A stretch of 61,600 bases of DNA from a virus (Duplodnaviria; Caudoviricetes), in the IMG/VR virus record IMGVR_UViG_3300037264_002513, positions 1-61,600 of that record. One strand, written 5' to 3'. The notes below the pieces were generated by a model. That model was not told where the DNA came from. It did not search any database and was given only the letters and a program-made list of their open reading frames with translations. Positions 6,208-55,271 of this stretch are shown here, piece after piece (positions within the stretch are counted from its first letter, which is position 1; each line of letters starts with the position of its first letter). The position numbers were made by a program, and so were the translations under genes.

Positions 6208-7199
6208 CACGCCCTCCCCGCCAGCGCCTCGGCGGCATGTTTCATGCGGTCCACCGCCTCCGTCACGTCCGCGACGGCTTCGACGAGCACCTCCCGGAGT
6301 TCCTCGGCCTTCACCCCCGGCGCCTCGCACAGGCAGCTGAGGATGCGGAGACGGAAGGCGACCACCTTGTCGAGGTCGGGCAGCACCTCCTGCCGCGCCT
6401 TCTCCCGGCGCTCAGCGGCGAGCTTGGCCTGCTGCGCCGCTTCCTCGCGCCGCAGCCGCTCCTGGCGCTCGCGCTCGACCGCTTCGTTCAGCCGGCGCTG
6501 CTCCTCAAGAGCCTTGCGCTCGGCCTCCAGGCGCGCGGCCTCCGCCCGCTGCTCCGCCGCGATCTTGGCGAGCTCGGCCTCCTTGGCCCGCTGCTGCTCC
6601 GCCTCGAACTGCTGGCGCGCCTTCTCGGCCGCTACCCGCTCGGCCTCCCACACCCGCTGGCGCTCAGCCTCCTCCTGGCGGGCCTTCTCCTGCGCGGCTT
6701 CGAGGGCCTTGCGCTCCTCCGCCAGCTTGGCCCGCTCCTCGGCGAGGCGCTTCTCCTCCGCCTCGCGCTGGGCGCGTGCCTCCGCCTCCTGGGCGGCCCT
6801 ACGCGCGGCGATCTCCTCTTCGAGCGCCTTCACCCTCGCCGCTTCCTCCGCGGCCTTCTGGCGGGCAGCCTCGTCGTCGACCGCCTGCTTCTTAACCCGT
6901 AGCGGATCCTCGATGCCAGCCACGAGCGCGGTGAGGCGCTGGGCCTCGGAGTCGACCAGACGCCCGAACCGGAGTGCGTCCGCCTTCAGCAGCGTTCGGC
7001 GCTTCTCGATCGCCGTGCGGGTCGACCGCAGCTTGCCGATGGCCACCCGGATCTCTTCGTAGCCATCGGGGGTGTCGGCCGACATGGCCGCGCAGACCTC
7101 GCGCATCTGGGCGAGCGCCGCCTCGTTGACATCGTAGACAACGAGCGCCGCGGCGGCATCCGGCACCGGCGTGATGATGAGAGGGGTATCGGCGCTCAT
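6207..7199 (-). CDS. long coiled-coil phage protein
   Basis: E/A/R/K-rich heptads; N-terminal GYEEIRVAIGKLRSTRTAIEKRR; ATGA coupling. Confidence 0.75.
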   Translation of the reverse strand: MSADTPLIITPVPDAAAALVVYDVNEAALAQMREVCAAMSADTPDGYEEIRVAIGKLRSTRTAIEKRRTLLKADALRFGRLVDSEAQRLTALVAGIEDPLRVKKQAVDDEAARQKAAEEAARVKALEEEIAARRAAQEAEARAQREAEEKRLAEERAKLAEERKALEAAQEKARQEEAERQRVWEAERVAAEKARQQFEAEQQRAKEAELAKIAAEQRAEAARLEAERKALEEQRRLNEAVERERQERLRREEAAQQAKLAAERREKARQEVLPDLDKVVAFRLRILSCLCEAPGVKAEELREVLVEAVADVTEAVDRMKHAAEALAGRA

Positions 7200-8725
7200 C
7201 GGCCATGCTCCAGTTCCTCCGGCGCGTAGAGCCCGTGCACTACGTCCGGGTAGACCAAGCGGGCCAGCTTCGCGCTGGCGCGGGCCACGCACATATCGGC
7301 CGGGTTCTTCGCCCAGGCTGAGGCGCTCCAGGCTTTCTGCCGTGCGCCGTCTGAGGGGTTGTCTCCAAACCAGGCCTGTCGGCCCTCGGCGAGGGTGAAG
7401 GTCAGGGCGATCTCAGGATCGCCGACGCGCTTGGTCGCGAAGGTCGCGCGCTCAGCCGTGCGCTCAGTGCAGCGGAAGTACTCCGCCAGACCGGAGCGGA
7501 GCACCATCGCCCGCAGGAGGTCAGCGGACAGCGTCGCCTTGCCTTCGATGATATGCACGGCTCTCACTGACGCGAACACCGTGAGTCCGAGCTCGCGACC
7601 GGCGAGGAAGGTCATCAGAAGGGCCTGCCACGTCGTGTAGGAACCACCCCAGAGCCGCGAATCGAACGCCGCCTGTGCGAGCCAGGTCGCCTGCGTCATC
7701 GTGTTCGGCTCGAACTTACGCTCGAACTCGACATCGACGACGTTGGTCGCTACGCGCGCCAGCTCCGTCGTCGTCGGCAGCGGTGGGAGCGGCTTCAAGA
7801 CGGCTGCGTCGGACACGGGAGGGGCCTCCGGGAACGTGATCGTCAGTTCGCCCCCGTTTGGCGTCTGGACAACCGGCGGCGCGACCGGCGCGCTGGCCTC
7901 CTCCTCCGGTGGCGGCGGCGTGGGCCGGGAGGCCGGCGGCTTCTCGAGCTCCGCGATCGGGAGCTTCACATCGGTGCGAAGCGCGATGAGGGCCCGCACC
8001 AGCGGCAGCCGCAGCTTGAACCCAACCAGGGCCTGGACGATGGCCGGCGTCAGGCCGCGCGCGACGCCGCGGTCGAGGTCCACGTACATGTCGTCGAGCG
8101 ACTTCCAGGCCTTCAGGATCTGCACAGCCCGCACGGGGCCGCAGCCCTTCAGGCCCTGGATGTTGTCCGACGCGTCGCCGACGAGGGCGAGGTAGTCACG
8201 CATCTGGTACGGCATGACCCCGAACTTCTCGAAGGCCGCCGCCTCGTCATAGACTTCGCCCTGCCGCGGCGTCTTGACTTTCACGCGGTCGGTGACCAGC
8301 TGGAGGAGATCCTTGTCGCCCGACACGATGAGGACGGACGTGGTCGGCGGCAGCTGGGCCACCAACGAGGCGATGATGTCGTCCGCTTCGAAGCCGGGGA
8401 CCGCCCACACCGGCCAGCCGTCGGCCCGCAACAGATCCTGCGCGAGCTGCAGCTGGTGGAGCAGTGAGGCATCCTTGTCCCGGCGGTTCGCCTTGTAGCT
8501 GGGGTCCAGCTCGTGGCGGAACGTCTGCCCCGGGGAGTCGCAGCAGACCACCACGCGCCGCTCGCCCTCACCGAGGGCCAGCTGGTGGACCTTTGCCGCC
8601 GTCGCGTTCGCGACGTGGTTGAGCTCGGCGTTGTCCGCCGAGGTCATGTAGATGGGATACAAGATCGAGGAGAGGTCGACGGCCACCACGAGGGGCGGCG
8701 TCTCGGGTACAATAGGTTCTGGCAT
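7196..8725 (-). CDS. 5'-3' exonuclease (PolI-N/FEN-like) fused to RecT/Redbeta-like ssDNA-annealing domain
   Basis: FRHELDPSYKANR, FEADDIIASL, SGDKDLLQL, LVGDASDNIQG (5'-nuclease motifs); Pro-rich linker; C-terminal GRELGL..S...HIIEGK...MCVARA...ARLVYPD..GLYAPEEL. Confidence 0.85.
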   Translation of the reverse strand: MPEPIVPETPPLVVAVDLSSILYPIYMTSADNAELNHVANATAAKVHQLALGEGERRVVVCCDSPGQTFRHELDPSYKANRRDKDASLLHQLQLAQDLLRADGWPVWAVPGFEADDIIASLVAQLPPTTSVLIVSGDKDLLQLVTDRVKVKTPRQGEVYDEAAAFEKFGVMPYQMRDYLALVGDASDNIQGLKGCGPVRAVQILKAWKSLDDMYVDLDRGVARGLTPAIVQALVGFKLRLPLVRALIALRTDVKLPIAELEKPPASRPTPPPPEEEASAPVAPPVVQTPNGGELTITFPEAPPVSDAAVLKPLPPLPTTTELARVATNVVDVEFERKFEPNTMTQATWLAQAAFDSRLWGGSYTTWQALLMTFLAGRELGLTVFASVRAVHIIEGKATLSADLLRAMVLRSGLAEYFRCTERTAERATFATKRVGDPEIALTFTLAEGRQAWFGDNPSDGARQKAWSASAWAKNPADMCVARASAKLARLVYPDVVHGLYAPEELEHGR

Positions 8726-11777: not shown

Positions 11778-13055
11778 TCACCTGGTCGCTGTGATGCCGA
11801 CCGCGTGAGACGGGCTGCTCGAGAGAGTCAGCAAGGGTCGATCGAGCCCAGCCCGACGCGCGAGGCCTTCGAGGCCATCGGGCTGGAGGTTGTCGCTGTA
11901 GGCATACAACAGGAGCGTGCGCCACGGCGCGAGGCAGTGTTCGCGCACCACTGCGGCGCGCTCCGGCGGCAGCTCGAGGAGCCGCCCCGGCATCAACAGT
12001 ACTGTGTCGGGGCTCCACTCGGCCCACGGCACATGTCCGATGTCGCCCGTCATCCACTCCCCGCCAGCGAGTCGGATGATGTCAGGCTCGCGCTCCACAC
12101 CCAGCGTCTCGATGGCGCCGACATCCCGCAGGATGCGGTCGAGGAGCATCCCGTTTCCGGCCCCCAGGTCGACGACGCGAGATTGACCCGGCACGAGGCG
12201 GCCCCGCAGGGCGGCGACAATCGCGCGGTGGGCAGCCCGCATCGGCCCGGGGGCCGAAAACCCGTTCTCCGTCCACCACCTGGCATCCGCCGGTCGGTAC
12301 GCGCCATCGCGGGCCAGCCGGTCAGTGTGCAGGGTGTGGTCAGTGCGCGTCGAGATCCGCATGGCCGGCGTCGAGATCCACGCGATGCCGTGCAGCCGGC
12401 TCCACTCCATCGGCCAGGCCAGCATCTCGACCGCCTCGTCCGTTTCCCACCGATAGCCCAGTCGCCTTGCCGCCTTGAGCGCGTCAGAGGCGAGCGCCTT
12501 CGACATCATGCAGGCGGAATCGCAGGGAAGATGTGGGACGAGGCGGACGCCAGCCCATCGCAACCAGATGTTGATGAGGGGTGGCCCAGACGCGCCGGCT
12601 TCGAAGGTGCTGTCGACTTGGCCCTTGCCCCATGTCTGACAGAACGCCCCGCGACAGCACACGGGGTAGCCCAGGAGTTGCCCGACCTTGCCGTCGTCGC
12701 GCACCGCGAGGGCGTTGAGTAGGGCCCGCGCGTTCTCCGGCGCAGCGACGATGACCCGGTATTGCCAAGGCCCGCCAGGCACGAGCGCGCCCTCGCAGGA
12801 CGTGTAAGGCTGCGCTGACACGGGCACCTGGCGCGGCACCACGGCGAGCCCGTGCCGCACGCCCCACTCCGCCAGCGCCGGGAGCTCGTCGGGCGAGCAG
12901 TGCTGGTACGCCGCCTGGCGCACACCATCCACCACCAGTTGGCGCTCGACCTCGAGCCAGGCGCGCCCCCAATCCTGCCGCACCGCTTCCCACCAGGCGC
13001 GAGACGCCTGGTCGCGATACGCGATGCGCGTGAAGTCAGGCAGCTGTGGGCTCAT
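11778..13055 (-). CDS. Cys-motif (DUF483-like) domain fused to class I SAM-dependent methyltransferase
   Basis: GQLLGYPVCCRGAF...RLVPHLPCDSAC in N-domain; VVDLGAGNG..LGVE in C-domain; ATGA overlap with radical SAM gene. Confidence 0.75.
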   Translation of the reverse strand: MSPQLPDFTRIAYRDQASRAWWEAVRQDWGRAWLEVERQLVVDGVRQAAYQHCSPDELPALAEWGVRHGLAVVPRQVPVSAQPYTSCEGALVPGGPWQYRVIVAAPENARALLNALAVRDDGKVGQLLGYPVCCRGAFCQTWGKGQVDSTFEAGASGPPLINIWLRWAGVRLVPHLPCDSACMMSKALASDALKAARRLGYRWETDEAVEMLAWPMEWSRLHGIAWISTPAMRISTRTDHTLHTDRLARDGAYRPADARWWTENGFSAPGPMRAAHRAIVAALRGRLVPGQSRVVDLGAGNGMLLDRILRDVGAIETLGVEREPDIIRLAGGEWMTGDIGHVPWAEWSPDTVLLMPGRLLELPPERAAVVREHCLAPWRTLLLYAYSDNLQPDGLEGLARRAGLDRPLLTLSSSPSHAVGITATR

Positions 13056-14308
13056 CGGCCGGAATCTCCATGACTGTCACCGTGCGGCGAGTCCCCGTGC
13101 CCAGAGTCCCCGTGGCGCGGACGGGTGTGGTCGGTGTGATCGCCGTGGCCGTCGCCGTGGCCGCCATCCCGCGGTGCCCGTCGTGTGCCGCAGCTCGAGC
13201 CCAGCACCGCGTCTGATAGGCGGGGCGTGTCGCCGCGCGCCCACGCTTCGTGCATGTACCGTTCGTAGAGCGCCCGGTGCGGATGCTGAGTCACCGGCAC
13301 GATGCCGGCGCGGCGGAGCCGCCGCTCGCCCTCCGCGTAGAGGTGTTTCCACACCGCGCAGTACGCGTCTTTGTTGCGCCAGTCACCGTCGATGGCCCCG
13401 CCAGGGCACGCCCCGGTGCAACAGATCCAGTAGGGGCAGCCTTGGCAGCCGCCGTGATCTTGCGGGGTGACTTCCAGCGCGAGCTGCCGCTCGTAGGAGT
13501 GGCCGTCGGCGGGGGTCCACGGTCCACCCGTGAGGACGCGTCCGCACATCGAGGGTTCGCCGTCAGGCTCGATGCCGTTGCAGCTGGGCGTATTCCATGG
13601 GTCACAAGACCGATGGTGGCACAGCACATGATCGTCTTGACCCTGCAGGACGCGCAGCACATCGCTGAAGATCGACAGCGTGAGGTCGGGGCTCTCGTCC
13701 TGTAGGGCCCAGAGCGCGTCAAGCACCGACATCAGATCCGAGTCTGGCAAGACAAGCTCAGGGGGGCCGTGCCGCTCAAGTAGGTGCGGGTTGATATGTC
13801 GGATGCCGCGATGGCGGAGGCCACGAACCCACTCGAGGAACCGCGCCACGCGCTCGCTGGTCCCCACGTTCGCCGCAGAGAGCGTGATGATGAACGAGGG
13901 CACCACGCCAGCCTCAAGGAGCGCATCGATCGCCGCCTCGGTCTTTGCCGTCTGCTGCACGCCACATCGGGCGGCGTTGAGGTCGCCAGGGCCGTCGATG
14001 CTGACACCTACCCCGACGCAGTACCGCTGGAAGAGCACGATGTGCGCGGGCGTGATCAAGGTGCCGTTGGTCTGGATGCCGGAGTGCCCGAACTTCTGGT
14101 GACCGTACGCGAAGAACTCCTCGAGCTCAGCCAGCGACGAGAGCAACGGCTCGCCGCCAAACAGATGGAAGCTCCCGCCCAACCGGTCGATCTGCCGGAA
14201 CATCGCGGCCTTGTCGAGCGGGATGCGCTCCCGGCGGTCGTGCTGTTCATAGCAGTACGCGCAGGCGAGGTTACATCGATGCCCGACGAGTTTGATCTCG
14301 ACTGTCAT
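13052..14308 (-). CDS. radical SAM/SPASM-domain peptide/protein maturase with HGD-repeat C-terminal tail
   Basis: CNLACAYC (CxxxCxxC), FGGEPLL, IQTNGTLI, VSIDG; SPASM C..GIEPDGEPSMC and CQGCPYWICCTGAC (Cx2Cx5Cx3C)...YC. Confidence 0.92.
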   Translation of the reverse strand: MTVEIKLVGHRCNLACAYCYEQHDRRERIPLDKAAMFRQIDRLGGSFHLFGGEPLLSSLAELEEFFAYGHQKFGHSGIQTNGTLITPAHIVLFQRYCVGVGVSIDGPGDLNAARCGVQQTAKTEAAIDALLEAGVVPSFIITLSAANVGTSERVARFLEWVRGLRHRGIRHINPHLLERHGPPELVLPDSDLMSVLDALWALQDESPDLTLSIFSDVLRVLQGQDDHVLCHHRSCDPWNTPSCNGIEPDGEPSMCGRVLTGGPWTPADGHSYERQLALEVTPQDHGGCQGCPYWICCTGACPGGAIDGDWRNKDAYCAVWKHLYAEGERRLRRAGIVPVTQHPHRALYERYMHEAWARGDTPRLSDAVLGSSCGTRRAPRDGGHGDGHGDHTDHTRPRHGDSGHGDSPHGDSHGDSGR

Positions 14309-15544
14309 CTACGCTCCTATCAGGCTGGGGTTCGCTACGGCCTCGGCATCGGCGTGGTCGATGTCGGCGTGATCCGTGTCAGCGTGCGTATTCGCGTGGT
14401 CGGCATCGGAGTGGGCAGAGTCGGTGTGGGGCACAAGGTCGCCGTGCGCGTCAGAGTGGGTGTTCTGATGGTCGATATCTCCATGCGCTTCGTCCTGGTA
14501 CAGCTGGTCTTGGTGCAGCGTATCTGCGTGGGTGTTCGAATGCGCGTCGGTGTGCACGTTCAGGTGGTCGCTGTCGAGGTGCTCCTGGTCCACATGGGTC
14601 ACGTCCCCGTGCGTGTTCTGGTGCAGCGTATCAGTGTGGGTGTTGAGGTGCGGCCAGTTTTCGTGGGATACGTCGTCGTGATCAGTGTAGGTGTCGGACC
14701 AGTCATCATGGGTGTTCAGGTGGTCGCTGTCGAGGTGGCCGACGCCCTGGTTGGTATGCTCGTCCTGGTGACCGGAGTCCTCATGGGAGTCCGTCCAGTC
14801 GGTGTAGTCCGCGTAGTTCCCATGGAGGACATCCTCGTGGATGTTGGTGTGCCCATCGAGGTGATCGGTGTGGTCCGTATAGAGCTTCCCCCCGCCCAGA
14901 TCGATGTAGCCCACGTTCGCCCAGTCTCCGTACGTGTCCTGATGCTCAAACACCGGAGGCGTGTCGGTGTGCGTGTTCGTATGGGTGTCGGTGTGGTCGC
15001 GGTCAGCGTGGGGGACATTGGTGTGCACCGCATCCGTCCACGCGCTATACGTGTCAGCGTGGAGGACGTTGGCATGGCTCTGGTCCTGGTGCTGCGTGTC
15101 GACGTGTTCGGCATCCGTGTGGCTGGCATCACTATGGGCGTCGCTGTAGATGTCTCCATGTTCGATGTCAGCGTGCGCGACGTTTCCATGGGTATTCTCA
15201 TGGACGTTATCTTGATGGTCGACGTTGCCGTGCGCCACATCCTGGTGACCCCAGAACTCCTCGTGGTCGCTCTCCGCCAGCCAGTGCAGCTGCGCGCCCT
15301 CGATCCAGAGGGATCCCGCCGCGCCCGCTGGGGTGCCCAGCGAGGGGCCGTAGGCTCTGTATTCGTTTGAGGCGCTCTCGTTGATCCAGTGGAGGTAGTC
15401 GCCCTCGATCCAGAGGCTCCCCGGGGCCGCCGTCGCGACCGCCGCAGCGACCCATTCCCCAGCCAGTCGCCACTCGATGCGGGAGGCGTCGATGTAGTGG
15501 AGGTTGTTCCCCTCCACCCAAAGGGAGCCGGGGCGTTTCGCCAC
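14309..15544 (-). CDS. H/Y/W-x-D/N repeat protein; putative radical-SAM substrate and virion fibre
   Basis: Three N-terminal GSLW(V/I)EGxxLH(Y/W) repeats, then ~65 aromatic-X-Asp/Asn tripeptides; start and stop abut both neighbours with 0-bp gaps. Confidence 0.85.
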   Translation of the reverse strand: MAKRPGSLWVEGNNLHYIDASRIEWRLAGEWVAAAVATAAPGSLWIEGDYLHWINESASNEYRAYGPSLGTPAGAAGSLWIEGAQLHWLAESDHEEFWGHQDVAHGNVDHQDNVHENTHGNVAHADIEHGDIYSDAHSDASHTDAEHVDTQHQDQSHANVLHADTYSAWTDAVHTNVPHADRDHTDTHTNTHTDTPPVFEHQDTYGDWANVGYIDLGGGKLYTDHTDHLDGHTNIHEDVLHGNYADYTDWTDSHEDSGHQDEHTNQGVGHLDSDHLNTHDDWSDTYTDHDDVSHENWPHLNTHTDTLHQNTHGDVTHVDQEHLDSDHLNVHTDAHSNTHADTLHQDQLYQDEAHGDIDHQNTHSDAHGDLVPHTDSAHSDADHANTHADTDHADIDHADAEAVANPSLIGA

Positions 15545-16366
15545 TTAGATCTCCGCGTACTTGTCCGCACCAACAGGAATCACAAGGCGGTTGCCCGCGT
15601 TGGACAGCCGCACGATCGGCGACCGCGCAAACTGCGTCGCCGACGTGGCCATCAGCATGTCTCCCGCCGCTTGCCCGACCAACGCCAGGCCCCCGGCGCG
15701 CACGGCCGCGATCTCGACGTTCGTCGGCTGCACCACGAGGCTCGAACTCAAGTCCGCGACGCCCACCAGCCGCCGATACGTGGGCGCGGTCGACGTGATG
15801 GCCCCCACCGTCGCGGAGACATAATACGCCACCCCGGGACTCAGTCCAACAAACCCCGTGACACGCCCTTGGAGCCGAACGGCCCCCGTCGCTGCAGAGG
15901 CGATAGCCGTCGGCGCCAGGCCCACCATCCCCGCCTCGCTCGAGCTCGCCAGCACATCCGCATCGGCACGGTACCACCGCCCCGCCGTCGTGCCGCCCGC
16001 CCCCGCACTGAGATAGACGACATCGCGCGCGGCGATGGCCTCACCGGCAATTCCCTCGATGTCCACGTTCGCGTCCCACGAGGCCGGCGCGATCAGGTTG
16101 TCTTGCGTCCGCAACACCACATCGTTGGCGTTCGCGAAGATGAGCTTGTAGCTGGTCGGGAGCCAGAACATGACGCACCGGCCGGCGGCGTCGCAGATCA
16201 CGGGGTTCGGGTTCGGGATCGTCCCCGCCGCATCTGAGTACGTCGGCAACGCGTTGGCGGGCCAGGTGCCGCCCGCCGACAGCGTGTAGATACGCGCCCC
16301 AGCGATCGTGTTGCCGTTGCTGTCAAGCGCCGTGAACCACGGCGAGGGGGCGACCATGAGCTGCAT
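15545..16366 (-). CDS. tail spike/fibre adaptor with P22 tailspike head-binding-like N-terminal domain
   Basis: DSNGNTIAGARIYT..AG...TYSD..GT.PNPNPV.CDAAGR...YKLI...RTQDN; no catalytic spike domain follows. Confidence 0.7.
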   Translation of the reverse strand: MQLMVAPSPWFTALDSNGNTIAGARIYTLSAGGTWPANALPTYSDAAGTIPNPNPVICDAAGRCVMFWLPTSYKLIFANANDVVLRTQDNLIAPASWDANVDIEGIAGEAIAARDVVYLSAGAGGTTAGRWYRADADVLASSSEAGMVGLAPTAIASAATGAVRLQGRVTGFVGLSPGVAYYVSATVGAITSTAPTYRRLVGVADLSSSLVVQPTNVEIAAVRAGGLALVGQAAGDMLMATSATQFARSPIVRLSNAGNRLVIPVGADKYAEI

Positions 16367-29820: not shown

Positions 29821-31290
29821 CTACCTCGCGAGAAGGCGTCGGAGTTCTGCCACTTTCTGGGTGTGCATCGGCGACCCCTGCTGCCCTTGCCGTTCGAGGC
29901 TGACGATCTCGTTCATCAGCCGTTCCGCCTGTGCACGGACCTGTTCGTCGGCCGCGGCGGCCATTGTCGGGGCGGGCAACGGCCCAGCCGGCGCCGCAGG
30001 CGCAGCCGGTGGCATCGGACCCGCTGGTGGCGGAGGCGGCGCAGCCGGAAGCGCAGCCTGGGGCATCGCAGAACTCGGCCGAGCCAATGAGGCCAGTCCT
30101 GGCGCGGCGCCGGCAGGATTCACGGGCGGCTTGAGTTCCGTCGTGCCCTTCACCGGGTTGCCGGCGAGGTCGTAGACGGGCGGCCGGATCGGCCAGTACA
30201 CGTCCAGGGCCTTCTGGACCTCGATGCCGCTGAGATTCGGATGCGCAGCCTGCAGCTCAGGCATGGCCCGCGCGAGCTCGGATTCGGCCTGCTCCCGCGT
30301 GTAGCCGCTGTTCCTCATCTTGGTGAGGTAATGGTCGACGCCGGTGGGGAACTTCGGGTTGTCCTTGAAGGGCTCCTCGCCCTTCTCCGGCTTTTCCGGC
30401 GCCCGCTGCGAGGCGCTGAAGGCCGAAATCAACGCGGCGCTCTCCTTTGCGGTCTTCGGCGGCCCATGCTCCGCCACCCAGCCCGCGTGAAACACCGCGA
30501 ACTCGTTGATCGCGGGCTTGGCTTCGTCCATCCACTGCAATGCCGCCCTCCGCTCCGTCTCGGTATTCACGGGGTCGAACGTCGGTGAAAACGCCTGGGC
30601 GAACACATCCTGGAGGCCACCCATCTTTGCGTACGGCTCGATCGCTTTTCGCCGTGCATCGAGGTCAGCCTGGTCCCTGATGGGGGTCTTCAAGACCCGC
30701 ATCCCGGCACTAAAGACCGCCGGCAGCGAGGTCACCTGTCGGTAACCTCTGGCCTCTTTCCGCTCCTCCTCCTCTGCGCGTTCTCGGAGAAACTTGCCGG
30801 TCATCTCCGGCTCGACGGCCATGCCCTGGCGTCGCACCTCGTCAGGATCGTCCTCGCCGTAGATGCCGATGAGTGCACCGACCTGTTGCTTGTTCGACCG
30901 GTCGGTGGCGGCGTTCGTCCGTCGCGTGATCTCGTCAGCCTTGTCATCGAAGCCGTGGGTGGCGTAGACCTCCGCGCGTGCCGCGGGGGGGAGGTCGCGC
31001 GCCGTGACGGCCAGCGTATCCAGCAGCTTCGCCTTGTCCTCTTCCCGCATCAGGCGCGCTGTTTGGGCATCGGCGAGCTTGCGCCCCGACTCTCCGGCCT
31101 TGTACTTGATGAGGTCGCTCATCGTGTCCCCGGCCGTGTTAATGATGTTGCCCCACATCCAGGCGTTGGCTGCGCCCTCTTGCCGCATCCGATCTCCGGC
31201 GACAAGCCCCCGCCGCCGGATGAGGTCCGACATGCGCGCCGTCGAGGCGCTTGAGTCGTACGGGGGGCGTGCGTAAGGAATGTTGGCCAT
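29821..31290 (-). CDS. probable ejection/internal virion protein
   Basis: MANIPYARPP start with TAATG coupling; position between DNA-transfer genes and giant gene. Confidence 0.7.
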   Translation of the reverse strand: MANIPYARPPYDSSASTARMSDLIRRRGLVAGDRMRQEGAANAWMWGNIINTAGDTMSDLIKYKAGESGRKLADAQTARLMREEDKAKLLDTLAVTARDLPPAARAEVYATHGFDDKADEITRRTNAATDRSNKQQVGALIGIYGEDDPDEVRRQGMAVEPEMTGKFLRERAEEEERKEARGYRQVTSLPAVFSAGMRVLKTPIRDQADLDARRKAIEPYAKMGGLQDVFAQAFSPTFDPVNTETERRAALQWMDEAKPAINEFAVFHAGWVAEHGPPKTAKESAALISAFSASQRAPEKPEKGEEPFKDNPKFPTGVDHYLTKMRNSGYTREQAESELARAMPELQAAHPNLSGIEVQKALDVYWPIRPPVYDLAGNPVKGTTELKPPVNPAGAAPGLASLARPSSAMPQAALPAAPPPPPAGPMPPAAPAAPAGPLPAPTMAAAADEQVRAQAERLMNEIVSLERQGQQGSPMHTQKVAELRRLLAR

Positions 31291-32357
31291 TATGCCTGTG
31301 CTCCCAATTCTGCCAGCCAGCGCCGACGTTCCTCGAACATCAACTCGCGCTTCCACAGATCCGACTCAGCCTCCACCGCCTTGCGGAACGCATCGTCGGT
31401 GCCGTAGACGACCTTGCGGAAGTCGTCGTCGTTCTTGTAGACGTACTCCTGCCAGTCGCGATCGAAGTTGAGCTCGGCGGCGCGCTGGCCGGCGTTGGTC
31501 TGCGTCTGCCAGCCCAGCAACCCCGGGGCGTACTCGGCCCCGCTGCCCTCGAAGGCCCGATCCCACACGTCCTTGTCAGCGCCCCAGTTCCGCTCCCAGG
31601 CTTCGCCCTTGCGTTTGTCGGCCGCCGCCCACTCCTGCGACGCCAGGCCCTGCCCGAACGCCGTGAGGTCGGCCATGTGGCCCCCGGTTCTCACGGTGCC
31701 TTTCGCCGCCGCGCCCATGTCCGCGGCACGCACGCCCTGGCTGAGCCGCCAGTCGTAGCCGGGGTCAGCGAGCAACTCCTCCTGCGTCAGCGGCGTATAC
31801 CGCGCGGGCGGCGTCAGCGTCGGAGCCGTATAGGCTGGCGGCGCGACGTACGGCGGGGCCTGGAAGTTGCCAGCCGTGGTGGAGGGCCCCAGCGACTCTG
31901 GCAAGGACAGACCACCCCATGGCGCCGGGGTCGCCGCCGGTACTGGAGATGCTGGCGCTGGAGACGCCACAGCTGGCGCTGGAGACGCCACAGCTGCCGG
32001 TGTCGTGCCGGCGGGGACCGCAGATGCCGGCAACGTCGCGGCGACCTCCGGGGTCATCGCGGGCGCAGCCGCAGGGGCCACCCCGGGTGTCTGCAGTTGC
32101 TGGTCTGGCCCGATGTCGGTCGGATCCCAGACCAGCTGGCCCGCTCCGTTGTCCTTCCACCGGCCTGGTTGCCCCGGCACGTTCACTTGAGGGCCGGGGC
32201 CGGCGGGATGAGTACCGCCGGTCGGCAGAATACTCTGAGCCGCGTCCCCGCCAGGCGCACCGGGCGCACCGATCTTCCAGGCCTCAGCGACCTCGTCCTC
32301 GGTCAGGTCGCGGCCGAGCGCCTCGCTCAGACCGTCGTACGGATATCCGCTGGCCAT
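31290..32357 (-). CDS. DNA transfer (ejection) protein
   Basis: DPGYDWRLSQG...AAAKG...GG...L..FGQGLASQE motif characteristic of P22-like DNA-transfer proteins. Confidence 0.75.
   Translation of the reverse strand: MASGYPYDGLSEALGRDLTEDEVAEAWKIGAPGAPGGDAAQSILPTGGTHPAGPGPQVNVPGQPGRWKDNGAGQLVWDPTDIGPDQQLQTPGVAPAAAPAMTPEVAATLPASAVPAGTTPAAVASPAPAVASPAPASPVPAATPAPWGGLSLPESLGPSTTAGNFQAPPYVAPPAYTAPTLTPPARYTPLTQEELLADPGYDWRLSQGVRAADMGAAAKGTVRTGGHMADLTAFGQGLASQEWAAADKRKGEAWERNWGADKDVWDRAFEGSGAEYAPGLLGWQTQTNAGQRAAELNFDRDWQEYVYKNDDDFRKVVYGTDDAFRKAVEAESDLWKRELMFEERRRWLAELGAQA
31951..31996. repeat. 21-bp tandem repeat (2.2 copies) encoding AVASPAP
   Basis: GCTGGCGCTGGAGACGCCACA x2 + GCTG. Confidence 0.85.
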
Positions 32358-32361
32358 GGTG

Positions 32362-33234
32362 CTACCTCTTCGTCAATGAGCTCATGGGCATCTGCGTCGC
32401 CCCCTGCGCCAGGAGCCTGTAGGCTTCAGGCGACATCGTCGCGTAGGGATCCAGAGGCGCGAAGGCGGGCGGGGGGCCGTAGTCGCGCGGGGTGTAGGTC
32501 GTCGGCGGGACGTTGGCCGCCGTGAATCCCGCGAACGCTGCAGGCGGCGTCACCGTGGAAGCCGGAGGTGCCACTTCGGGCTTATACCCGGGGCCTCCCG
32601 AGGGTTGCCAGCCCCAGCCCCTCCACCCCGCGCCCGCGCCGAGGCCGACATCGAACTGGTTGATGCCTTCGAACTTGGGGTCGATCTCGGTGCCGAGGTA
32701 CAGCTGATCGCCCTTCGGACCCACCAGCGTGGCGTTCTTGAAGTAGCCCGACGGGTCCATCCGCAGCATCTGCAGCATCGCCTGTCGCTGCGCGGGGTCT
32801 GCTTGATTGAAGTTCGACGCGATCCTAGCAAACACGTACTTCGGACTCCGGTGCGACAAATCCGCGAGCTTCCCCGCATCGAAGCCCTCGAGCCGGCCTC
32901 GAGTACCCGTAGGCACATCGCGTGTGGCCATGCCCGACGACCCAGTGGCCAGCTGGTACTTGACCAGGTCAGCCCACCGCGCATCGCTGACCGCTTCGAC
33001 CTTGCCCTTGCCGGCGAGCACGTAGACCTTCGCCGCTGACACTTCAGATGGTTGCAGCCAGCGGTAGTTCCCGTCCTCGTAGAGCATCGCCCCGCCCTTC
33101 TCGTTGGTATAGAGGGCGAGCGTCGCGGGCGCGGGGCCACCGCCACCGGTGATCGGATCGGCCTGGGGCGGCGTGTAGGGATAATCCCCCTGGTACGCCG
33201 AGGGAGCCGACGCGTCGACGAACTGGGTTGCCAT
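32362..33234 (-). CDS. hypothetical virion protein
   Basis: 290-aa ORF with TAATG coupling in ejection-protein block. Confidence 0.7.
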   Translation of the reverse strand: MATQFVDASAPSAYQGDYPYTPPQADPITGGGGPAPATLALYTNEKGGAMLYEDGNYRWLQPSEVSAAKVYVLAGKGKVEAVSDARWADLVKYQLATGSSGMATRDVPTGTRGRLEGFDAGKLADLSHRSPKYVFARIASNFNQADPAQRQAMLQMLRMDPSGYFKNATLVGPKGDQLYLGTEIDPKFEGINQFDVGLGAGAGWRGWGWQPSGGPGYKPEVAPPASTVTPPAAFAGFTAANVPPTTYTPRDYGPPPAFAPLDPYATMSPEAYRLLAQGATQMPMSSLTKR

Positions 33235-33935
33235 TATGCCACCTGAGTCTTTCTCCGCCGCACGAGGGAGGCGAGCGAGGAGCCGAAGCCGGCGGACTTC
33301 ATCAGAGTAGAGATGTCCGCTGGCGTCAGCGTTGGCGGCGGCGCGGCCAGGGTGTCGTACGCCGCCGTCGTCATCGTGGGCGGCACACTTCGATCCGCAG
33401 GCGGACCCGCGGCCTGCCCAGCCGGCGCGGGAGCCAACGTCGGGGGCAGGATGTTCGGGTCGGACAAGTACGGATGCTGGGGAGCGGCCGGGGCCGGGGC
33501 CGGGGCCGCAGCCACAGGCTCAGCGGTCGTCGGTGGCGGAGCCGCCGGGGCCGCGGCAGGCGCGGAGAGGCCAGCCAAGGTAGCCAGCTGCGCGAGGGCC
33601 CCGGCACCCGCCGCTCGGTACGGGGCCATCTGTCTCTCGCGGTTGGCGTACTTCTCCCGCGCGAAGCCGATGGTGTCTTCGCGGTTGAGGTCGAAACGAC
33701 GCGTCTCTTCAGCCTGGCTTATTTCCCATTGGGTCTTGGCTTCTTCCTGCGCCCGCTCCCATTCGGCTTTACGTTCGGCCTCCTTCTCACGCTCGAACGC
33801 GAGCTGCTTGTCGAGGGCCGCTTCATCAGCTGCCGCGGCACGCTGGGACGCCCCCTTCTGGCTCTTCGAGGCAACGACCGTGGAGGCGGTCGTCGCCACC
33901 GCCGAGATGATGGCCGCCGCAACCATGTATGGCAT
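33234..33935 (-). CDS. P22 gp7-like DNA transfer protein
   Basis: Ala-rich hydrophobic N-terminus, coiled coil, APYRAAGAGALAQL motif. Confidence 0.65.
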   Translation of the reverse strand: MPYMVAAAIISAVATTASTVVASKSQKGASQRAAAADEAALDKQLAFEREKEAERKAEWERAQEEAKTQWEISQAEETRRFDLNREDTIGFAREKYANRERQMAPYRAAGAGALAQLATLAGLSAPAAAPAAPPPTTAEPVAAAPAPAPAAPQHPYLSDPNILPPTLAPAPAGQAAGPPADRSVPPTMTTAAYDTLAAPPPTLTPADISTLMKSAGFGSSLASLVRRRKTQVA

Positions 33936-34321: not shown

Positions 34322-34815
34322 GTCGCCACTCCCGGCAGCAGCTCGACGACGAGGTCGAGCGCGAACCGCATCGAGGTGCCACCCACGCTGCTGTAGGCCA
34401 CCCCGTAGGTGATCGGGCCGTCCTTGTCGACACGCATGAGGACCGTGCCCGTTTGCACCGTCGCGGGCGTGTTCCCCGTCGCCGCGGGCCAGGTCTGACT
34501 ACAGGCCACCCCGCTGTCAGTCCACCCCAGCGTCACCGCCGCGGAGCTGCTCGTCGAGGCGGCCCGCAAGATCCGCAGCGTGAACGTGACCCGGTACAGC
34601 GCCGCCGGGATGCCAGACACCGGCACAGCCGTCGGCGGGATGGCCGCTTCCGCCTGTACGCTGACGGTCTGCACACGACGCGTCGCGGCGTCTAGCTCAG
34701 ACACCACCGCCTGGAGCCACGAAATCCAAGGCCGCGTGAGGAAGCCGACGCGCTCGACCGGATTGACAGACACCATCGCGTCGCGTGGCAGCCCGGACAG
34801 ACGTTGTCGCAACAT
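34318..34815 (-). CDS. tail-associated protein
   Basis: ATG 34815 with TGATG coupling to gp10-like gene; LTRPWISWL motif. Confidence 0.6.
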   Translation of the reverse strand: MLRQRLSGLPRDAMVSVNPVERVGFLTRPWISWLQAVVSELDAATRRVQTVSVQAEAAIPPTAVPVSGIPAALYRVTFTLRILRAASTSSSAAVTLGWTDSGVACSQTWPAATGNTPATVQTGTVLMRVDKDGPITYGVAYSSVGGTSMRFALDLVVELLPGVAT

Positions 34816-36269
34816 CACCCACCTCCGCGGATCATGATATTGCAACCGATGATGCGCCACGGCACCGGATCCGTGACGACGAACTCGCCGACGATGTCCT
34901 CGCCAGACCCGCAGGCCCACCACCGGACGCGCTTCTCGTACTCCCAGATTTGTCCGATGCTGCGCGCCCGCGCCGGCCCCCAGGTTTTCCCGCCGTTCTT
35001 CGAGATCCGCATCGACATCACGGGGTCACTGCCGACCCCGCTGTAGGTCGCCACGCCGGCCTCGAGGAACACCTCGACGGAATCGAGCACGACGGTGTCG
35101 TGGTCCCGCCAGACCGAGGGCGTGACGCGGACCCGTCGGATCGGGAGTCCGTCGACATCCAGACCGAACGCCTCGGACACCTCGTAGATGGTGCCCGTCG
35201 TGCTGTCGAGCGCCAGGTGCTGGCCGAACGCGTGCACATGGTAGCGAGGCCGCCAGGCCACGAAGGTGTTGGACCCGCTGACCCAGGTGCCGCGCCGCGC
35301 CCAGGTCTGTGTGGACAAGTCGAGCGCCCACGTTACGTTCTGCGTCGGGAACGTGAGCAGATAGAACCAGTGCCCCGCCGACGCGTAGCTCGAGCCGTAG
35401 GCGTCGGTGATGACCGGGTACTGGTGCGTCGCCCACGCGAGCGCGTACGTGGAGACGACGTTGGGCGTGCCGCCGTTGACCATGACGATGCGGCCCTGGC
35501 CGTCGGCCGTCCGCTCCACCCAGAGGATGCCACCGCCGACCTCGCGCGCGGAGAACGGCGCCGCGCAGCCGAACGGCAGCAGGGCGCTGGGGATTGGCGC
35601 GAACGGGAAGGGGTAGGTGCCCGCGTTGTTCCAGACCTCAGAGGTTTCCTGGCCGAGCAGCCAGATCTCCCGCGAGGCCTTCGGGACGATCAGGCTCACC
35701 CACCGGTCTGGGGCCGTCGACCGCTGTGCGTACTGCGTCGGATCCCACGTTGTGGCGTCGCCCAGATCGCTCACGTAGAAGGTCGATGTCGCGGAGTCGA
35801 GAACGATGAAGTAGCCGTCCAGCATCGCGCACATCGTGTTGCCGATCTGCCGTTCGACCGTCAGCACGTTCGTCGTGAGGTCGTAGCTGTAGCCCACATC
35901 GCCGCTCGTGATGAAGAGCTGGCCGGCGAAGTCGCCGCCCCCGGCAATCGTGGCCGGGTTCGCGCCCACCTGGACCGTGCCGCGCGCGACGAGCGTGATC
36001 CCGCCACCCGTCACCGAGAGCGCCTCGTAGAACGTGCCGCCGATCACCGCGAAGGCGCGTCCGTTCTGCTCGAAGAACGCGCGGCCGGGTGTTTCCACTG
36101 GGGTCACGCGCGCCTCGACACCAGGCGTCGGGTACAGCGAGAACGGCGTCTTGCCGCCGATGACCTGGCGGGGCTCGGGATACCAGTTCACGCAGTCCTG
36201 CCCGTCGGCAATCACCGACTGGGACACGTTCGAGCCGCCGCAGTACATCGGCCAGGGGATAGAGGGCAT
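34815..36269 (-). CDS. P22 gp10-like tail hub / packaged DNA stabilisation protein
   Basis: CVNWYPE...LYPTPG, LDGYFI, SEVWNNAG..FPF, SKNGGKTWG..R.IG..EY..RVRW. Confidence 0.85.
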   Translation of the reverse strand: MPSIPWPMYCGGSNVSQSVIADGQDCVNWYPEPRQVIGGKTPFSLYPTPGVEARVTPVETPGRAFFEQNGRAFAVIGGTFYEALSVTGGGITLVARGTVQVGANPATIAGGGDFAGQLFITSGDVGYSYDLTTNVLTVERQIGNTMCAMLDGYFIVLDSATSTFYVSDLGDATTWDPTQYAQRSTAPDRWVSLIVPKASREIWLLGQETSEVWNNAGTYPFPFAPIPSALLPFGCAAPFSAREVGGGILWVERTADGQGRIVMVNGGTPNVVSTYALAWATHQYPVITDAYGSSYASAGHWFYLLTFPTQNVTWALDLSTQTWARRGTWVSGSNTFVAWRPRYHVHAFGQHLALDSTTGTIYEVSEAFGLDVDGLPIRRVRVTPSVWRDHDTVVLDSVEVFLEAGVATYSGVGSDPVMSMRISKNGGKTWGPARARSIGQIWEYEKRVRWWACGSGEDIVGEFVVTDPVPWRIIGCNIMIRGGG

Positions 36270-36270
36270 C

Positions 36271-37290
36271 TCAACTCCCCGAGTAAAGGTCGAAGCGTCC
36301 ACCGCCACGCAGCCCCGGCATCATCGGGTCCAGCGAGGCATCGACCGGGCGCCAGTTCGCCCGCTTGACCGCCGCCAGCGACTCCTTCGCCTTGCGCTCG
36401 ACGCGTGGTGACAGCGGGATGGCCGGGAAGTCGTCGGCCAGCTCCACCGCTAGGTTGTATCGCAACATGCGAGCCCACCCCTGCGGCAGCGCGTAGACCG
36501 TCGTGAGGTCCACGAACGTGCTGGGCGCCTCGGGCGTGTAGAGCACGAGGTCGGAGAGGTTGTTGTCGGGAACCGGGTCCAGATAGATCGTGCCCAGCCC
36601 AGCCGAGTGGGCCTGGTCATAGTAAATCTGGAACGGGTGCGACCCGGACGCGCCCTTCACTTGCAGCCCTTGCCACTGGGCAATCGTCATCGGGCGCCCG
36701 ATCGACATCTCCATCACGGGCGATGCCGAACGATTCGGCCGCACGCTGGCGCGGTCAATCCAGACCGGCCGCACCTGGTTGAAGTCGCCGCCCAGCCCGA
36801 TCGTGTAGGACGCCACGCCCGTCGAGAGCGGGTAGACGTGCCGGCCGATGGTGAAGATCGCGGCCCGCTCGAGGCCCAGGCTGTCGACGAAGTCGTCGAG
36901 CGCCACCTTGCCGGCGGCGAGATACTCGGCCTCCGGGGTGTCGATGACGCTCACCACGCCGAGCAGGCGCAGGGCCCGGGTGATGAGGTCGGTGGCGGAG
37001 GCGCCGGTCGGGCCTGGTACCGCGAGCTGCGATACGAGGATGGTGAATGACCGGTCGCCCGTGCGCCCGAGGTTCGTCACGATGTTATTCGTGCAGGTGT
37101 ACTCGATGCCGCTGGTCCCGGCGCTCAGCCACTGCGTAGTCGTGGTGTTGTCGTAGGACGCCACGCCTGCCGTGATGCCATCCGGCACGTCCCAGGTTGA
37201 GCTCGCAATCGTTTCGCCAGGCCCCAGCCACCCGGACCAGTCGAATCCGTAGTCGAGGTTGTCTGACGGGTCTTTCGTGAACAGGCTCAT
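36271..37290 (-). CDS. P22 gp4-like head-tail adaptor with N-terminal KDP..DY.FDW adaptor domain
   Basis: N-term KDPSDNLDYGFDWSGWL; C-term ATDLITRALRLLGV...LPQGWARMLRYNLAVEL. Confidence 0.75.
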   Translation of the reverse strand: MSLFTKDPSDNLDYGFDWSGWLGPGETIASSTWDVPDGITAGVASYDNTTTTQWLSAGTSGIEYTCTNNIVTNLGRTGDRSFTILVSQLAVPGPTGASATDLITRALRLLGVVSVIDTPEAEYLAAGKVALDDFVDSLGLERAAIFTIGRHVYPLSTGVASYTIGLGGDFNQVRPVWIDRASVRPNRSASPVMEMSIGRPMTIAQWQGLQVKGASGSHPFQIYYDQAHSAGLGTIYLDPVPDNNLSDLVLYTPEAPSTFVDLTTVYALPQGWARMLRYNLAVELADDFPAIPLSPRVERKAKESLAAVKRANWRPVDASLDPMMPGLRGGGRFDLYSGS

Positions 37291-55021: not shown

Positions 55022-55271
55022 GGCTGGCCTCCGCCGGGGGTGCCGTGTCCCGATCGGTATAGATGGGACGGCCGAACTGGTCGAGTAGGCGGGAGCCTGC
55101 CAACATGGCGTTCGCCGTCTTGAGCTGCGCCTGGATACGCTTGAGCCCATCCTGGACCAGCCAGCTCGCCAGCGCCGACACCGGCGACGCCCGCAGCCGT
55201 GCCCGCTCGACCTCGCCGGCCGGCTTCCAGCCGTCAGGGGAGCGCGGGTTGAGGCGGGCGAGGCGGCCCAT
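55014..55271 (-). CDS. hypothetical protein
   Basis: TGATG-coupled small ORF. Confidence 0.5.
   Translation of the reverse strand: MGRLARLNPRSPDGWKPAGEVERARLRASPVSALASWLVQDGLKRIQAQLKTANAMLAGSRLLDQFGRPIYTDRDTAPPAEASHG

Follow-up and report, generated by a model that had tools for sequence, protein, structure and literature searches.

A putative radical SAM protein-maturation cassette with an aromatic-x-Asp/Asn repeat protein in the tail-fibre module of tailed phages

Triceptides are defined by a cross-link from an aromatic residue to a C-beta carbon within Omega1-X2-X3 motifs. In the portion of the literature drawn on here, ~3900 putative triceptide pathways are counted, with links from the C2 of histidine to C-beta made by HaaB on HAA, YhhB on HNR, and HtkB on HTK, while ChlB acts on YDR (PMC11499958). 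A second system with histidine repeats is the HXS antiphage system, which, in the sections cited, comprises HxsA (a protein with five His-x-Ser repeats), HxsB and HxsC, which mature it, and HxsD (PMC13128918). A third is the 'rSAM module' of the Thermus phages Cumys and phiMa (Kolesnik et al., Viruses 2024), for which DNA modification was proposed in the part of the account used here (PMC11437467). Here, we analyze a 61,600-base stretch of DNA (the window, which is IMG/VR viral record IMGVR_UViG_3300037264_002513 of a Caudoviricetes phage, rated complete with a CheckV completeness of 100) and a four-gene cassette within it, in which a 411-aa protein rich in aromatic-x-Asp/Asn triplets precedes a radical S-adenosylmethionine (SAM) enzyme with a SPASM domain and a fusion of a DUF483-like domain with a methyltransferase. 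Our verdict, based on sequence comparisons, is that the cassette represents a real, widespread candidate protein-maturation system that would apply chemistry like that of ribosomally synthesized peptides with post-translational modifications (RiPPs) to a protein of the fibre module. The full reading, in which the enzyme staples the array into cyclophanes and the product is mounted on the virion, has a probability of roughly 0.5.

As in triceptide systems, a radical SAM/SPASM enzyme adjoins a substrate with several Omega1-X2-X3 motifs, and all four aromatics occur at position 1. Unlike those systems, the cassette falls below every curated family cut-off and is without a leader, protease, exporter, or N-terminal RiPP recognition element, for which the enzyme has no space because its radical SAM motif begins at residue 12; an earlier remark that no transporter is present holds for the conserved gene set as a whole, which has no leader peptidase either. 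The putative substrate in the window, 411 aa long and bearing 65 motifs, also belongs to a phage fibre module and is not a short secreted peptide, the cassette family has an obligatory DUF483-like partner that is sometimes fused to the enzyme, many family enzymes bear the motif in their own tails, and X3 is nearly always Asp or Asn.

The window cassette is a member of the Cumys/phiMa module: the same three genes occur there, identically ordered, where the tail genes end, with radical SAM proteins 39.5-39.8% identical, repeat proteins 33% identical, and DUF483 proteins matching at 122-128 bits. Unlike the Thermus phage loci, the window adds a fused methyltransferase, and it belongs to a podovirus with a head-binding adaptor rather than to a myovirus with a baseplate. 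The His-x-Asp repeats are not mentioned in the cited part of the published account of the module (PMC11437467), and full-text searches for literature linking such repeats, cyclophanes, and phages gave only that paper, which names the module; a phage N4 paper was rejected as such a link, since it merely cites a cyclophane paper.

The cassette resembles HXS, in the sections of that work cited here, in setting a whole protein with His-x-X repeats beside a SPASM-type radical SAM enzyme, but it has one radical SAM protein and a DUF483-like protein instead of two radical SAM proteins and HxsD, 65 repeats instead of five, and a place among phage late genes instead of a role as a bacterial defence effector (PMC13128918). 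Whereas HxsA carries His-x-Ser repeats and a peptidoglycan-binding domain, the window protein has Asp or Asn at position 3 and no Pfam or NCBIfam domain. The HxsB model (TIGR03978) scored 19.9 bits against a cut-off of 370 on the window enzyme, and the HxsC model (TIGR03977) matched nothing in the 61.6-kb genome at E <= 10. Among solved structures, the best relative of the enzyme family, aligned over nearly the full length, is the sulfatase-maturing enzyme anSME (4k36); unlike anSME, the window enzyme misses the TIGR03942 cut-off and has no sulfatase gene among its annotated neighbours. Sulfatases are modified at a Cys/Ser-x-P-x-R motif, and no conserved motif of this kind occurs in the window substrate.

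The four cassette genes lie on the minus strand in the order adaptor, repeat protein, radical SAM/SPASM enzyme, and DUF483-like/methyltransferase fusion (Table 1). The start of the adaptor gene overlaps the stop of the preceding polyvalent-protein gene in TGATG, the adaptor and repeat genes meet as TAA followed by GTG and the repeat and enzyme genes as TAG followed by ATG (both with zero gap), and the enzyme and fusion genes overlap in ATGA. These junctions indicate that the four genes form one translationally coupled unit. A preliminary description of this DNA, made from its letters alone, had proposed these four open reading frames (ORFs) with coupled junctions, and the sequence confirms both; its identification of a head-binding adaptor, a radical SAM/SPASM enzyme, and a fusion of a Cys-motif domain with a methyltransferase is borne out by the matches given below.

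Table 1 Features of the cassette and of the surrounding genome (window positions; residue numbers refer to the encoded protein).
Feature	Position	Strand	Basis or remark
Methyltransferase domain (class I, SAM-dependent), residues ~263-425, with stop codon	11778..12269	(-)	MetW-like, Foldseek
DUF483-like Cys-motif domain, residues 1-262	12270..13055	(-)	alignment; Pfam DUF483 sub-threshold
Radical SAM/SPASM enzyme, 418 aa	13052..14308	(-)	Pfam PF04055, phrog_1802
Enzyme C-terminal tail	13055..13159	(-)	seven H-G/T-D triplets
SPASM CX2CX5CX3C, residues 288-301	13406-13447	(-)	auxiliary-cluster cysteines
CX3CX2C, C12/C16/C19	14252-14275	(-)	radical SAM cluster motif
Repeat protein, C-terminal cap A-N-P-S-L-I-G-A and stop codon	14309..14329	(-)	phage-homologue ending
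Repeat protein, triplet array, residues 99-405	14330..15250	(-)	65 aromatic-x-Asp/Asn triplets, proposed substrate
Repeat protein, N-terminal beta-domain, residues 1-98	15251..15544	(-)	three units GS-x-W-[VI]-E-G-x-x-L-H-[YW]-[IL]
Adaptor, 273 aa	15545..16366	(-)	N-terminal ~125 residues resemble tailspike head-binding domain; C-terminal half without known family
'Large polyvalent protein', 4483 aa	16366-29817	(-)	single ORF directly upstream of cassette
DNA ejection proteins	31290-32357 and 33234-33935		PHROG 'DNA ejection'
Head closure protein	34815-36308		PHROG match
Portal	52634-55150		PHROG match

The repeat protein contains 67 [HYW]-x-[DN] motifs, 53 of them H-x-[DN], compared with 17.3 +/- 3.3 (maximum 29; z = 15) in 5000 composition-preserving shuffles; the array alone holds 65, in agreement with the ~65 counted earlier, and stands at z = 14.7. 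Histidine and aspartate (57 and 60 residues) make up 117 of the 411 residues, and successive histidines are most often five (27 times) or four (15 times) residues apart. Only four histidines (residues 16, 52, 87, and 94) fall outside an H-x-D/N motif, all in or just past the N-terminal domain; every one of the 53 beyond residue 99 sits within such a motif, which 12 further Tyr or Trp residues share, such that 65 of the 77 Asp/Asn residues of the array are preceded two positions earlier by an aromatic. Over the whole protein, Y/W-x-D/N motifs were also in excess (14 observed versus 5.8 +/- 2.1 expected), and position 3 of the H-x-[DN] motifs is Asp in 36 cases and Asn in 17. Since Tandem Repeats Finder detected just six short, low-scoring DNA repeats in the gene (best score 48), the periodicity is kept at the protein level and does not reflect recent DNA expansion.

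The repeat protein and the enzyme occur together well beyond the window. With a profile of 30 relatives of the enzyme, we retrieved 80 loci each from species-representative genomes and from viral contigs and scanned their ORFs by phmmer and by motif counts; one fetched locus without a phmmer match to the radical SAM protein was left out. Family loci were defined by a radical SAM protein scoring at least 150 bits against the window enzyme (24 genomic loci, 52 viral loci, three Thermus phages, and the window), and 78 loci with other radical SAM proteins below 100 bits served as controls. In a strict test, which required an ORF with at least nine H-x-D/N motifs on the same strand within 3 kb of the enzyme gene, an array was present at 60 of the 80 family loci, a DUF483-like gene at 75, and both at 58; the corresponding numbers for the 78 controls were 4, 0, and 0. 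By source, 46 of 52 viral and 11 of 24 genomic loci had a strict array, and among five intermediate loci (100-150 bits, kept separate) all had an array and four a DUF483-like gene. A looser test (a run of at least six aromatic-x-D/N in any ORF of at least 30 aa in the locus) gave 65/80 family loci versus 8/78 controls. The repeat protein and enzyme are thus a conserved pair, as had been proposed, with most homologues of the enzyme accompanied by an array, and the association suggests that the enzyme very probably modifies the triplet array of the repeat protein. The enzyme family is large: at least 733 proteins matched at E <= 1e-10 among 8000 scored candidates from a large protein database, and the closest relative among those scored was 63% identical.

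Searching 50,697 phage records with the proteins of the cassette recovered the enzyme in four, namely three Thermus phages (39.5-40.8% identity over 86-88% of the window enzyme) and, weakly, a Salmonella genome record (22.8% identity, E 3e-6). Two of these Thermus phages, phiMa and Cumys, also gave matches to the repeat protein, and here the search for the same neighbourhood called for earlier recovered the whole trio: phiMa_29/28/27 and Cumys_13/12/11 are collinear and homologous with the window cassette. Their genes run from baseplate genes through a tail-collar fibre gene, a small ORF, and a 343-aa repeat protein to the radical SAM protein and the DUF483 protein, followed by one opposite-strand gene and then an M23 peptidase. 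These repeat proteins have 61-62 motifs and the same N-terminal triple unit, and the accompanying radical SAM proteins have an H-G-D tail. In the third, the jumbo phage phiLo, the radical SAM and DUF483 genes come after two transposase fragments, and an array protein, with at least 75 H-x-D/N (read from stop to stop and reaching the end of the locus), is encoded on the other strand at a distance of 4.4 kb.

Three of the control loci (L138, L139, and L142) carry big arrays beside a different, DynA/anSME-like radical SAM protein, which in L138 scored 152 bits with DynA, 138 bits with anSME, and ~50 bits against the window enzyme. At L138 (4137-5675 and 7968-9095), and also at L139 and L142, the array proteins have 474-513 aa and runs of 30-43 aromatic-x-D/N near the radical SAM gene. 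These sequences hint that such arrays may have been adopted by more than one radical SAM lineage. Among ten labelled control radical SAM proteins, just one was a curated family member (QhpD-type). Within the family, the viral loci L085 (8001-11448), L089 (8001-10913), and L090 (8001-11387) have tandem radical SAM paralogues and several array proteins, and in each pair one paralogue has a long H-x-D tail of 12-24 triplets.

In a census of 84 proteins, 105 arrays, and 3122 motifs, position 1 was H in 2642, F in 252, Y in 204, and W in 24 cases, and position 3 was D in 2502 and N in 620; two residues before array D/N, these aromatics were enriched 4.2-, 2.8-, 1.9-, and 1.2-fold, respectively, and all other residues were at or below 0.51, ratios that are partly circular because the array limits were set by the same motif. 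Position 1 is an aromatic class (H, F, Y, W), matching the triceptide Omega1-X2-X3 logic and agreeing with the earlier naming of the motif as a triceptide-type aromatic-x-Asp/Asn. The phage homologue at L110 (2908-3942) shares the N-terminal domain and the C-terminal cap, but just six of its 47 aromatic-x-D/N motifs have His and the others are mostly P-F-x-N/D. The arrays of L085 and L090 alternate H-x-D with F-x-N, and four P-Y-I-K repeats, which represent a Tyr-x-Lys variant of the motif, close an 840-aa Spirosomataceae protein encoded before the radical SAM gene (L024, 5482-8001).

An unmodified, metal-binding fibre segment, with the enzymes acting elsewhere or as assembly factors, would account for the composition of the window protein, given that the His and Asp residues that dominate it are classic ligands, and an unstructured metal-free monomer, as modelled below, would be expected if folding needs ions or trimerization; metal-stacked His motifs at the tip of the phage T4 long tail fibre are a precedent. 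We nevertheless consider this explanation improbable, in that Phe, Tyr, and Trp replace His at position 1 (almost throughout in L110), arrays accompany the enzyme on unrelated carriers, including bacterial peptides of ~64-77 aa, and the enzyme's own tail bears the motif. Phe and Trp cannot ligate metals, and their acceptance at position 1 therefore makes ring chemistry the better fit.

The carriers themselves are diverse, which indicates that the array is what travels with the enzyme. In three Bryobacterales genomes, peptides of ~64-77 aa that are almost all P-H-x-D (L004, 7758-7949; L005, 7719-7949; L006, 7764-7970) have 9-11 triplets and directly precede radical SAM-DUF483 fusions of 658-686 aa; by its sequence and arrangement, this looks like a compact classical RiPP precursor/maturase pair. 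Small proteins with twin-arginine-like signals and 3-19 H-x-D triplets were seen at the bacterial family loci L012 (10811-11203), L015 (10216-10497 and 10501-11019), L021 (7109-7690, minus strand), L027 (10244-10537), and L019 (7210-7893, minus strand); such signals suggest that modification may take place in the cytoplasm and be followed by export. Other carriers are the phage proteins with the N-terminal beta-domain and proteins of 875-1179 aa ending in P-H-x-D runs, one of the latter with beta/gamma-crystallin domains. These domains were all that Pfam recognized in seven large array proteins, and none of the NCBIfam models covers the short H-x-D peptides or the other array proteins.

The identity of the enzyme as a radical SAM/SPASM protein is clear. 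Pfam Radical_SAM (PF04055) matched at 51.6 bits against a cut-off of 29.5 and phrog_1802 at E 2.9e-26, the radical SAM CX3CX2C and SPASM CX2CX5CX3C motifs are both present, and the SPASM cysteines from C288 to C301 are invariant in 30 homologues along with C230, C235, C255, and C317. The Pfam SPASM model itself gave no match to the enzyme at E <= 0.01; the SPASM motif was found in all 120 homologues listed. Searched against the PDB, the family profile matched anSME 4k36 best (E 9.7e-19, positions 3-346, SPASM domain included), and the radical SAM domain of ChlB (9gm3; E 9.5e-16, positions 8-151 only) came third after two anSME chains. C-terminal tails with at least three H-x-D/N occur in 28 of the 120 listed homologues, some with 20-36 triplets; the phiMa, Cumys, and phiLo enzymes bear similar H-x-D-type tails. 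Several relatives of 650-700 aa are radical SAM-DUF483 fusions.

The DUF483-like domain is the most constant companion of the enzyme. The Pfam DUF483 model (PF04467) reached 17 bits against a cut-off of 25 on the 425-aa fusion protein, and 24 of 36 aligned homologues matched it at E <= 0.01 (best 3e-6). Residues C133, C134, D148, R171, P177, C182, and P230 are invariant across the 36 homologues, and H175 and C178 nearly so. AlphaFold2 modelled the whole fusion protein with a mean predicted local distance difference test (pLDDT) score of 90. For residues 1-262, neighbours in the ESM Atlas were DUF483-type and unnamed clusters (score 0.76, to be taken as a lead). The Rossmann methyltransferase half has a MetW-like match at 19.9 bits, and Foldseek, whose matches cover this half only and gave no structural relative for the DUF483-like domain, returned SAM methyltransferases (best PrmA 2nxj, E 4.5e-6, with a template-modelling score normalized by the query of only 0.27). 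A Methyltransf_25 match was present in 21 of the 36 homologues of the fusion protein, the methyltransferase domain is missing from the Thermus phage versions, and in some bacteria the DUF483-like domain is fused to the radical SAM protein. Judged by this distribution, the methyltransferase is an accessory module and the DUF483-like domain the obligatory partner, a distinction missing from the preliminary description, which had also passed over the H-x-D tail of the enzyme.

We propose that, in the infected cell, the radical SAM/SPASM enzyme and the DUF483-like domain would act on each triplet, most likely by abstracting a hydrogen from C-beta of the Asp or Asn and bonding this carbon to the ring of the aromatic that stands two positions earlier. 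The product of this step would be a three-residue cyclophane, like those that triceptide synthases make on HAA, HNR, and HTK. The fused methyltransferase would add an optional second modification, and the 273-aa head-binding adaptor would attach the modified protein to the virion, where it would form a stiff distal fibre dense in cross-links. Rigidity, protease resistance, and metal binding, suggested earlier for such a fibre, would be putative properties. By analogy with the triceptides, a three-residue cyclophane cross-link is our tentative choice for the modification.

A number of results weigh against this reading. The preliminary description had placed the enzyme among cyclophane-forming families of the XncB, GrrM, and FxsB types, an assignment that we do not uphold: 60 NCBIfam models matched the enzyme, all far below their cut-offs (bits/cut-off: AmcB 63.2/425, anSME TIGR03942 60.1/349.45, DynA 57.3/450, TIGR04083 53.5/300, PapB 48.5/340, YhhB 45.5/445, GrrM/OscB 44.8/310, and XyeB 33.6/450), and most of these weak matches span the N-terminal radical SAM core only. 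They are mostly to peptide maturases, and four of the top eight (AmcB, DynA, YhhB, and GrrM/OscB) form cyclophane or C-C cross-links, which speaks for the reading. FxsB was not among the 25 NCBIfam matches listed for the window enzyme, and a bacterial radical SAM-DUF483 fusion homologue gave the same picture of scores below cut-off (FxsB 50.3 of 370 bits). As far as these comparisons go, the family lies outside the named families, as a very divergent branch of its own within the anSME-like SPASM maturases of peptides and proteins, and it is no nearer to the cyclophane synthases than to anSME, a Ser/Cys oxidase. The maturation of HxsA is a further point, given that, in the sections cited, it consists of N-terminal processing and a +8 Da change (PMC13128918). 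At the level of loci, 13 of the 24 bacterial family loci, some of them cyanobacterial, lacked an array in the strict test, and 15 of the 80 family loci had no array of at least five motifs within the fetched flanks. To these are added the partial circularity of the census and the structural results below.

Several of the same observations would be explained if the array were modified by other radical chemistry, such as epimerization, a C-O or C-N cross-link, oxidation of Asp/Asn at C-beta, or an HxsA-like change, with the DUF483-like domain supplying a second catalytic step. The comparable closeness of the enzyme to anSME, which is a C-beta oxidase, is in keeping with this, as is the fact that HxsB and HxsC give +8 Da on a His-x-Ser protein and not -2 Da per motif in the work cited (PMC13128918). 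The DUF483-like partner, with its invariant Cys, Asp, and Arg residues, moreover has no counterpart in the characterized triceptide pathways covered by the portion of the literature used here (PMC11499958). The motif itself speaks for cyclophane formation, however: a ring-to-side-chain cross-link would require just what is seen, namely conservation of an aromatic together with the residue two positions later and free exchange of the four aromatics, and neither epimerization nor simple Asp oxidation would need a paired aromatic. We therefore regard other chemistry as unlikely, although far less so than metal binding without modification.

AlphaFold2 modelling of the repeat protein, for which the window sequence was aligned with 34 of 44 homologues found, gave a confident all-beta N-terminal domain (residues 1-100, block-mean pLDDT 89-98), an array with block-mean pLDDT of 38-49 and no secondary structure as an unmodified monomer, and a C-terminus at 77-89, where residues 407-410 form a beta-strand. 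The N-terminal domain is conserved in 44 ORFs of related loci, with S7, W9, G42, G77, S78, and W80 invariant, and phage homologues share an ending D-x-P-x-[LYF]-[IV]-G, in which P406 is nearly invariant. Given that the array between them has no predicted structure, the C-terminal strand is taken to pair with the N-terminal domain, where it probably docks, so that the array would form a closed loop. The model matched no PDB fold at E <= 0.001, and its weak top fold rows (choline-binding repeats, BamB, designed propellers, and clostridial toxin repeat domains) were rejected as chance-level. With an array modelled as unstructured and no fold match, there is no structural support for a fibre, which counts against the proposed reading.

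The same genes have been read differently for Cumys and phiMa. If the radical SAM/DUF483/methyltransferase set modified phage DNA or nucleotides, the repeat protein would be an unrelated fibre, and the reported position of cyanobacterial homologues beside deazapurine DNA-modification genes (in the part of PMC11437467 used here) favours this and weighs against modification of the array, as does the cyanobacterial locus L007, where a radical SAM protein and a DUF483-methyltransferase protein occur and the array is absent. We consider DNA modification very improbable. Arrays accompany the enzyme at 60-65 of 80 family loci as opposed to 4-8 of 78 controls, the nearest solved or curated relatives are SPASM enzymes that modify proteins or peptides, and the cassette lies among late fibre genes and not among replication genes.

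The genes upstream of the enzyme point to a tail context. A PDB sequence search matched adaptor residues 9-129 to 9vyg, at its tailspike chains (E 3.7e-6), and residues 12-81 to 7eeq, the head-binding domain of a tailspike (E 6.8e-4); there was also a weak match to phrog_26190. The adaptor was ruled out as a conserved fourth member of the cassette, with no homologue among the 21 upstream-neighbour ORFs of related loci, and a single homologue was found in locus L137. Upstream genes differ by lineage, ten loci sharing one small partner and four another, none of them like the window adaptor; fibre modules are typically mosaic. We also scanned against PHROG the one or two nearest upstream same-strand ORFs of at least 150 aa at the 52 viral family loci, 33 of which gave 64 ORFs, or 61 after removal of four duplicates and addition of the window adaptor. 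The 25 PHROG families most shared by these ORFs, each matched by just 4-6 of the 61, included 11 annotated as 'tail fiber protein', two as 'tail protein', two as 'collagen like minor tail', and one as 'virion structural protein', with nine unnamed. These annotations support the view that the cassette lies within the tail-fibre module, both in the window and in other phages, and, as far as gene context can indicate, the product of the repeat gene is likely a component of the virion, mounted on the tail through the adaptor.

The further suggestion that the repeat protein stands in place of an ordinary tailspike is uncertain, since both the adaptor and a second protein could also serve adsorption. 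The latter, encoded at 42008-46132 on the minus strand, has 1374 aa, FG-GAP repeats, and an ASPIC/UnbV domain (E 2.2e-20 and 1.3e-6). Such a protein is unusual in a phage and could lie on the particle surface or act in adhesion; for this reason, the repeat protein need not be the sole adsorption device.

The wider genome has a G+C content of ~67%, and a tRNA search found no tRNA genes in the 61.6-kb window. A search of sequencing runs listed one DNA dataset as a holder, possibly the source sample, and no RNA dataset. The gene order (portal, head closure, ejection, and polyvalent proteins) matches that of P22-like podoviruses. The polyvalent protein has an LPD38 domain at residues 4153-4314 (E 4.9e-28) and SNF2/ResIII helicase motifs at ~2387-2639, and an HExxH motif and a methyltransferase-like N-V-P-F motif were noticed by eye; its location after the ejection genes makes it probable that this is an internal protein of the virion that is ejected. 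The cassette had been described as lying between the ejection genes and a lysis block, and PHROG matches bear out the ejection side; the lysis side was not substantiated, as the three small proteins downstream of the cassette match no Pfam family. Elsewhere (7196-8725, minus strand), an exonuclease domain (phrog_107, E 8e-35) is fused to a RecT-like annealing protein (phrog_4171/561), forming a single-chain recombination module.

What our analysis adds to the earlier account of the module is a podovirus version with a head-binding adaptor, controls for the pairing of enzyme and array, Phe-array and Tyr-x-Lys variants of the motif, the triplet tail of the enzyme itself, and the conserved C-terminal cap. 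The system is open to test in the culturable Thermus phages phiMa and Cumys, and the Bryobacterales pair would be the easiest to test. In the broadest view, extrapolated from sequence, the array would become a fibre of 65 rings whose two ends are both held by a small beta-domain, and the triplet tail that the enzyme itself bears would offer a built-in substrate or a docking element. It is possible, if doubtful, that such arrays of enzyme-made three-residue macrocycles are the building material of surface proteins in hundreds of unrelated tailed phages and in some bacteria.

If the proposed reading is true, radical SAM cross-linking, so far familiar from small secreted peptides, would serve to build parts of virus particles as well, a structural use of RiPP-type chemistry beyond diffusible natural products. 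Phage structural biology would then gain a class of post-translational modification that is new to it. The enzymes would form a new, very large family and a natural source of catalysts that process dozens of motifs per polypeptide. A module guessed to modify DNA would be re-annotated, and DUF483 would gain a function.

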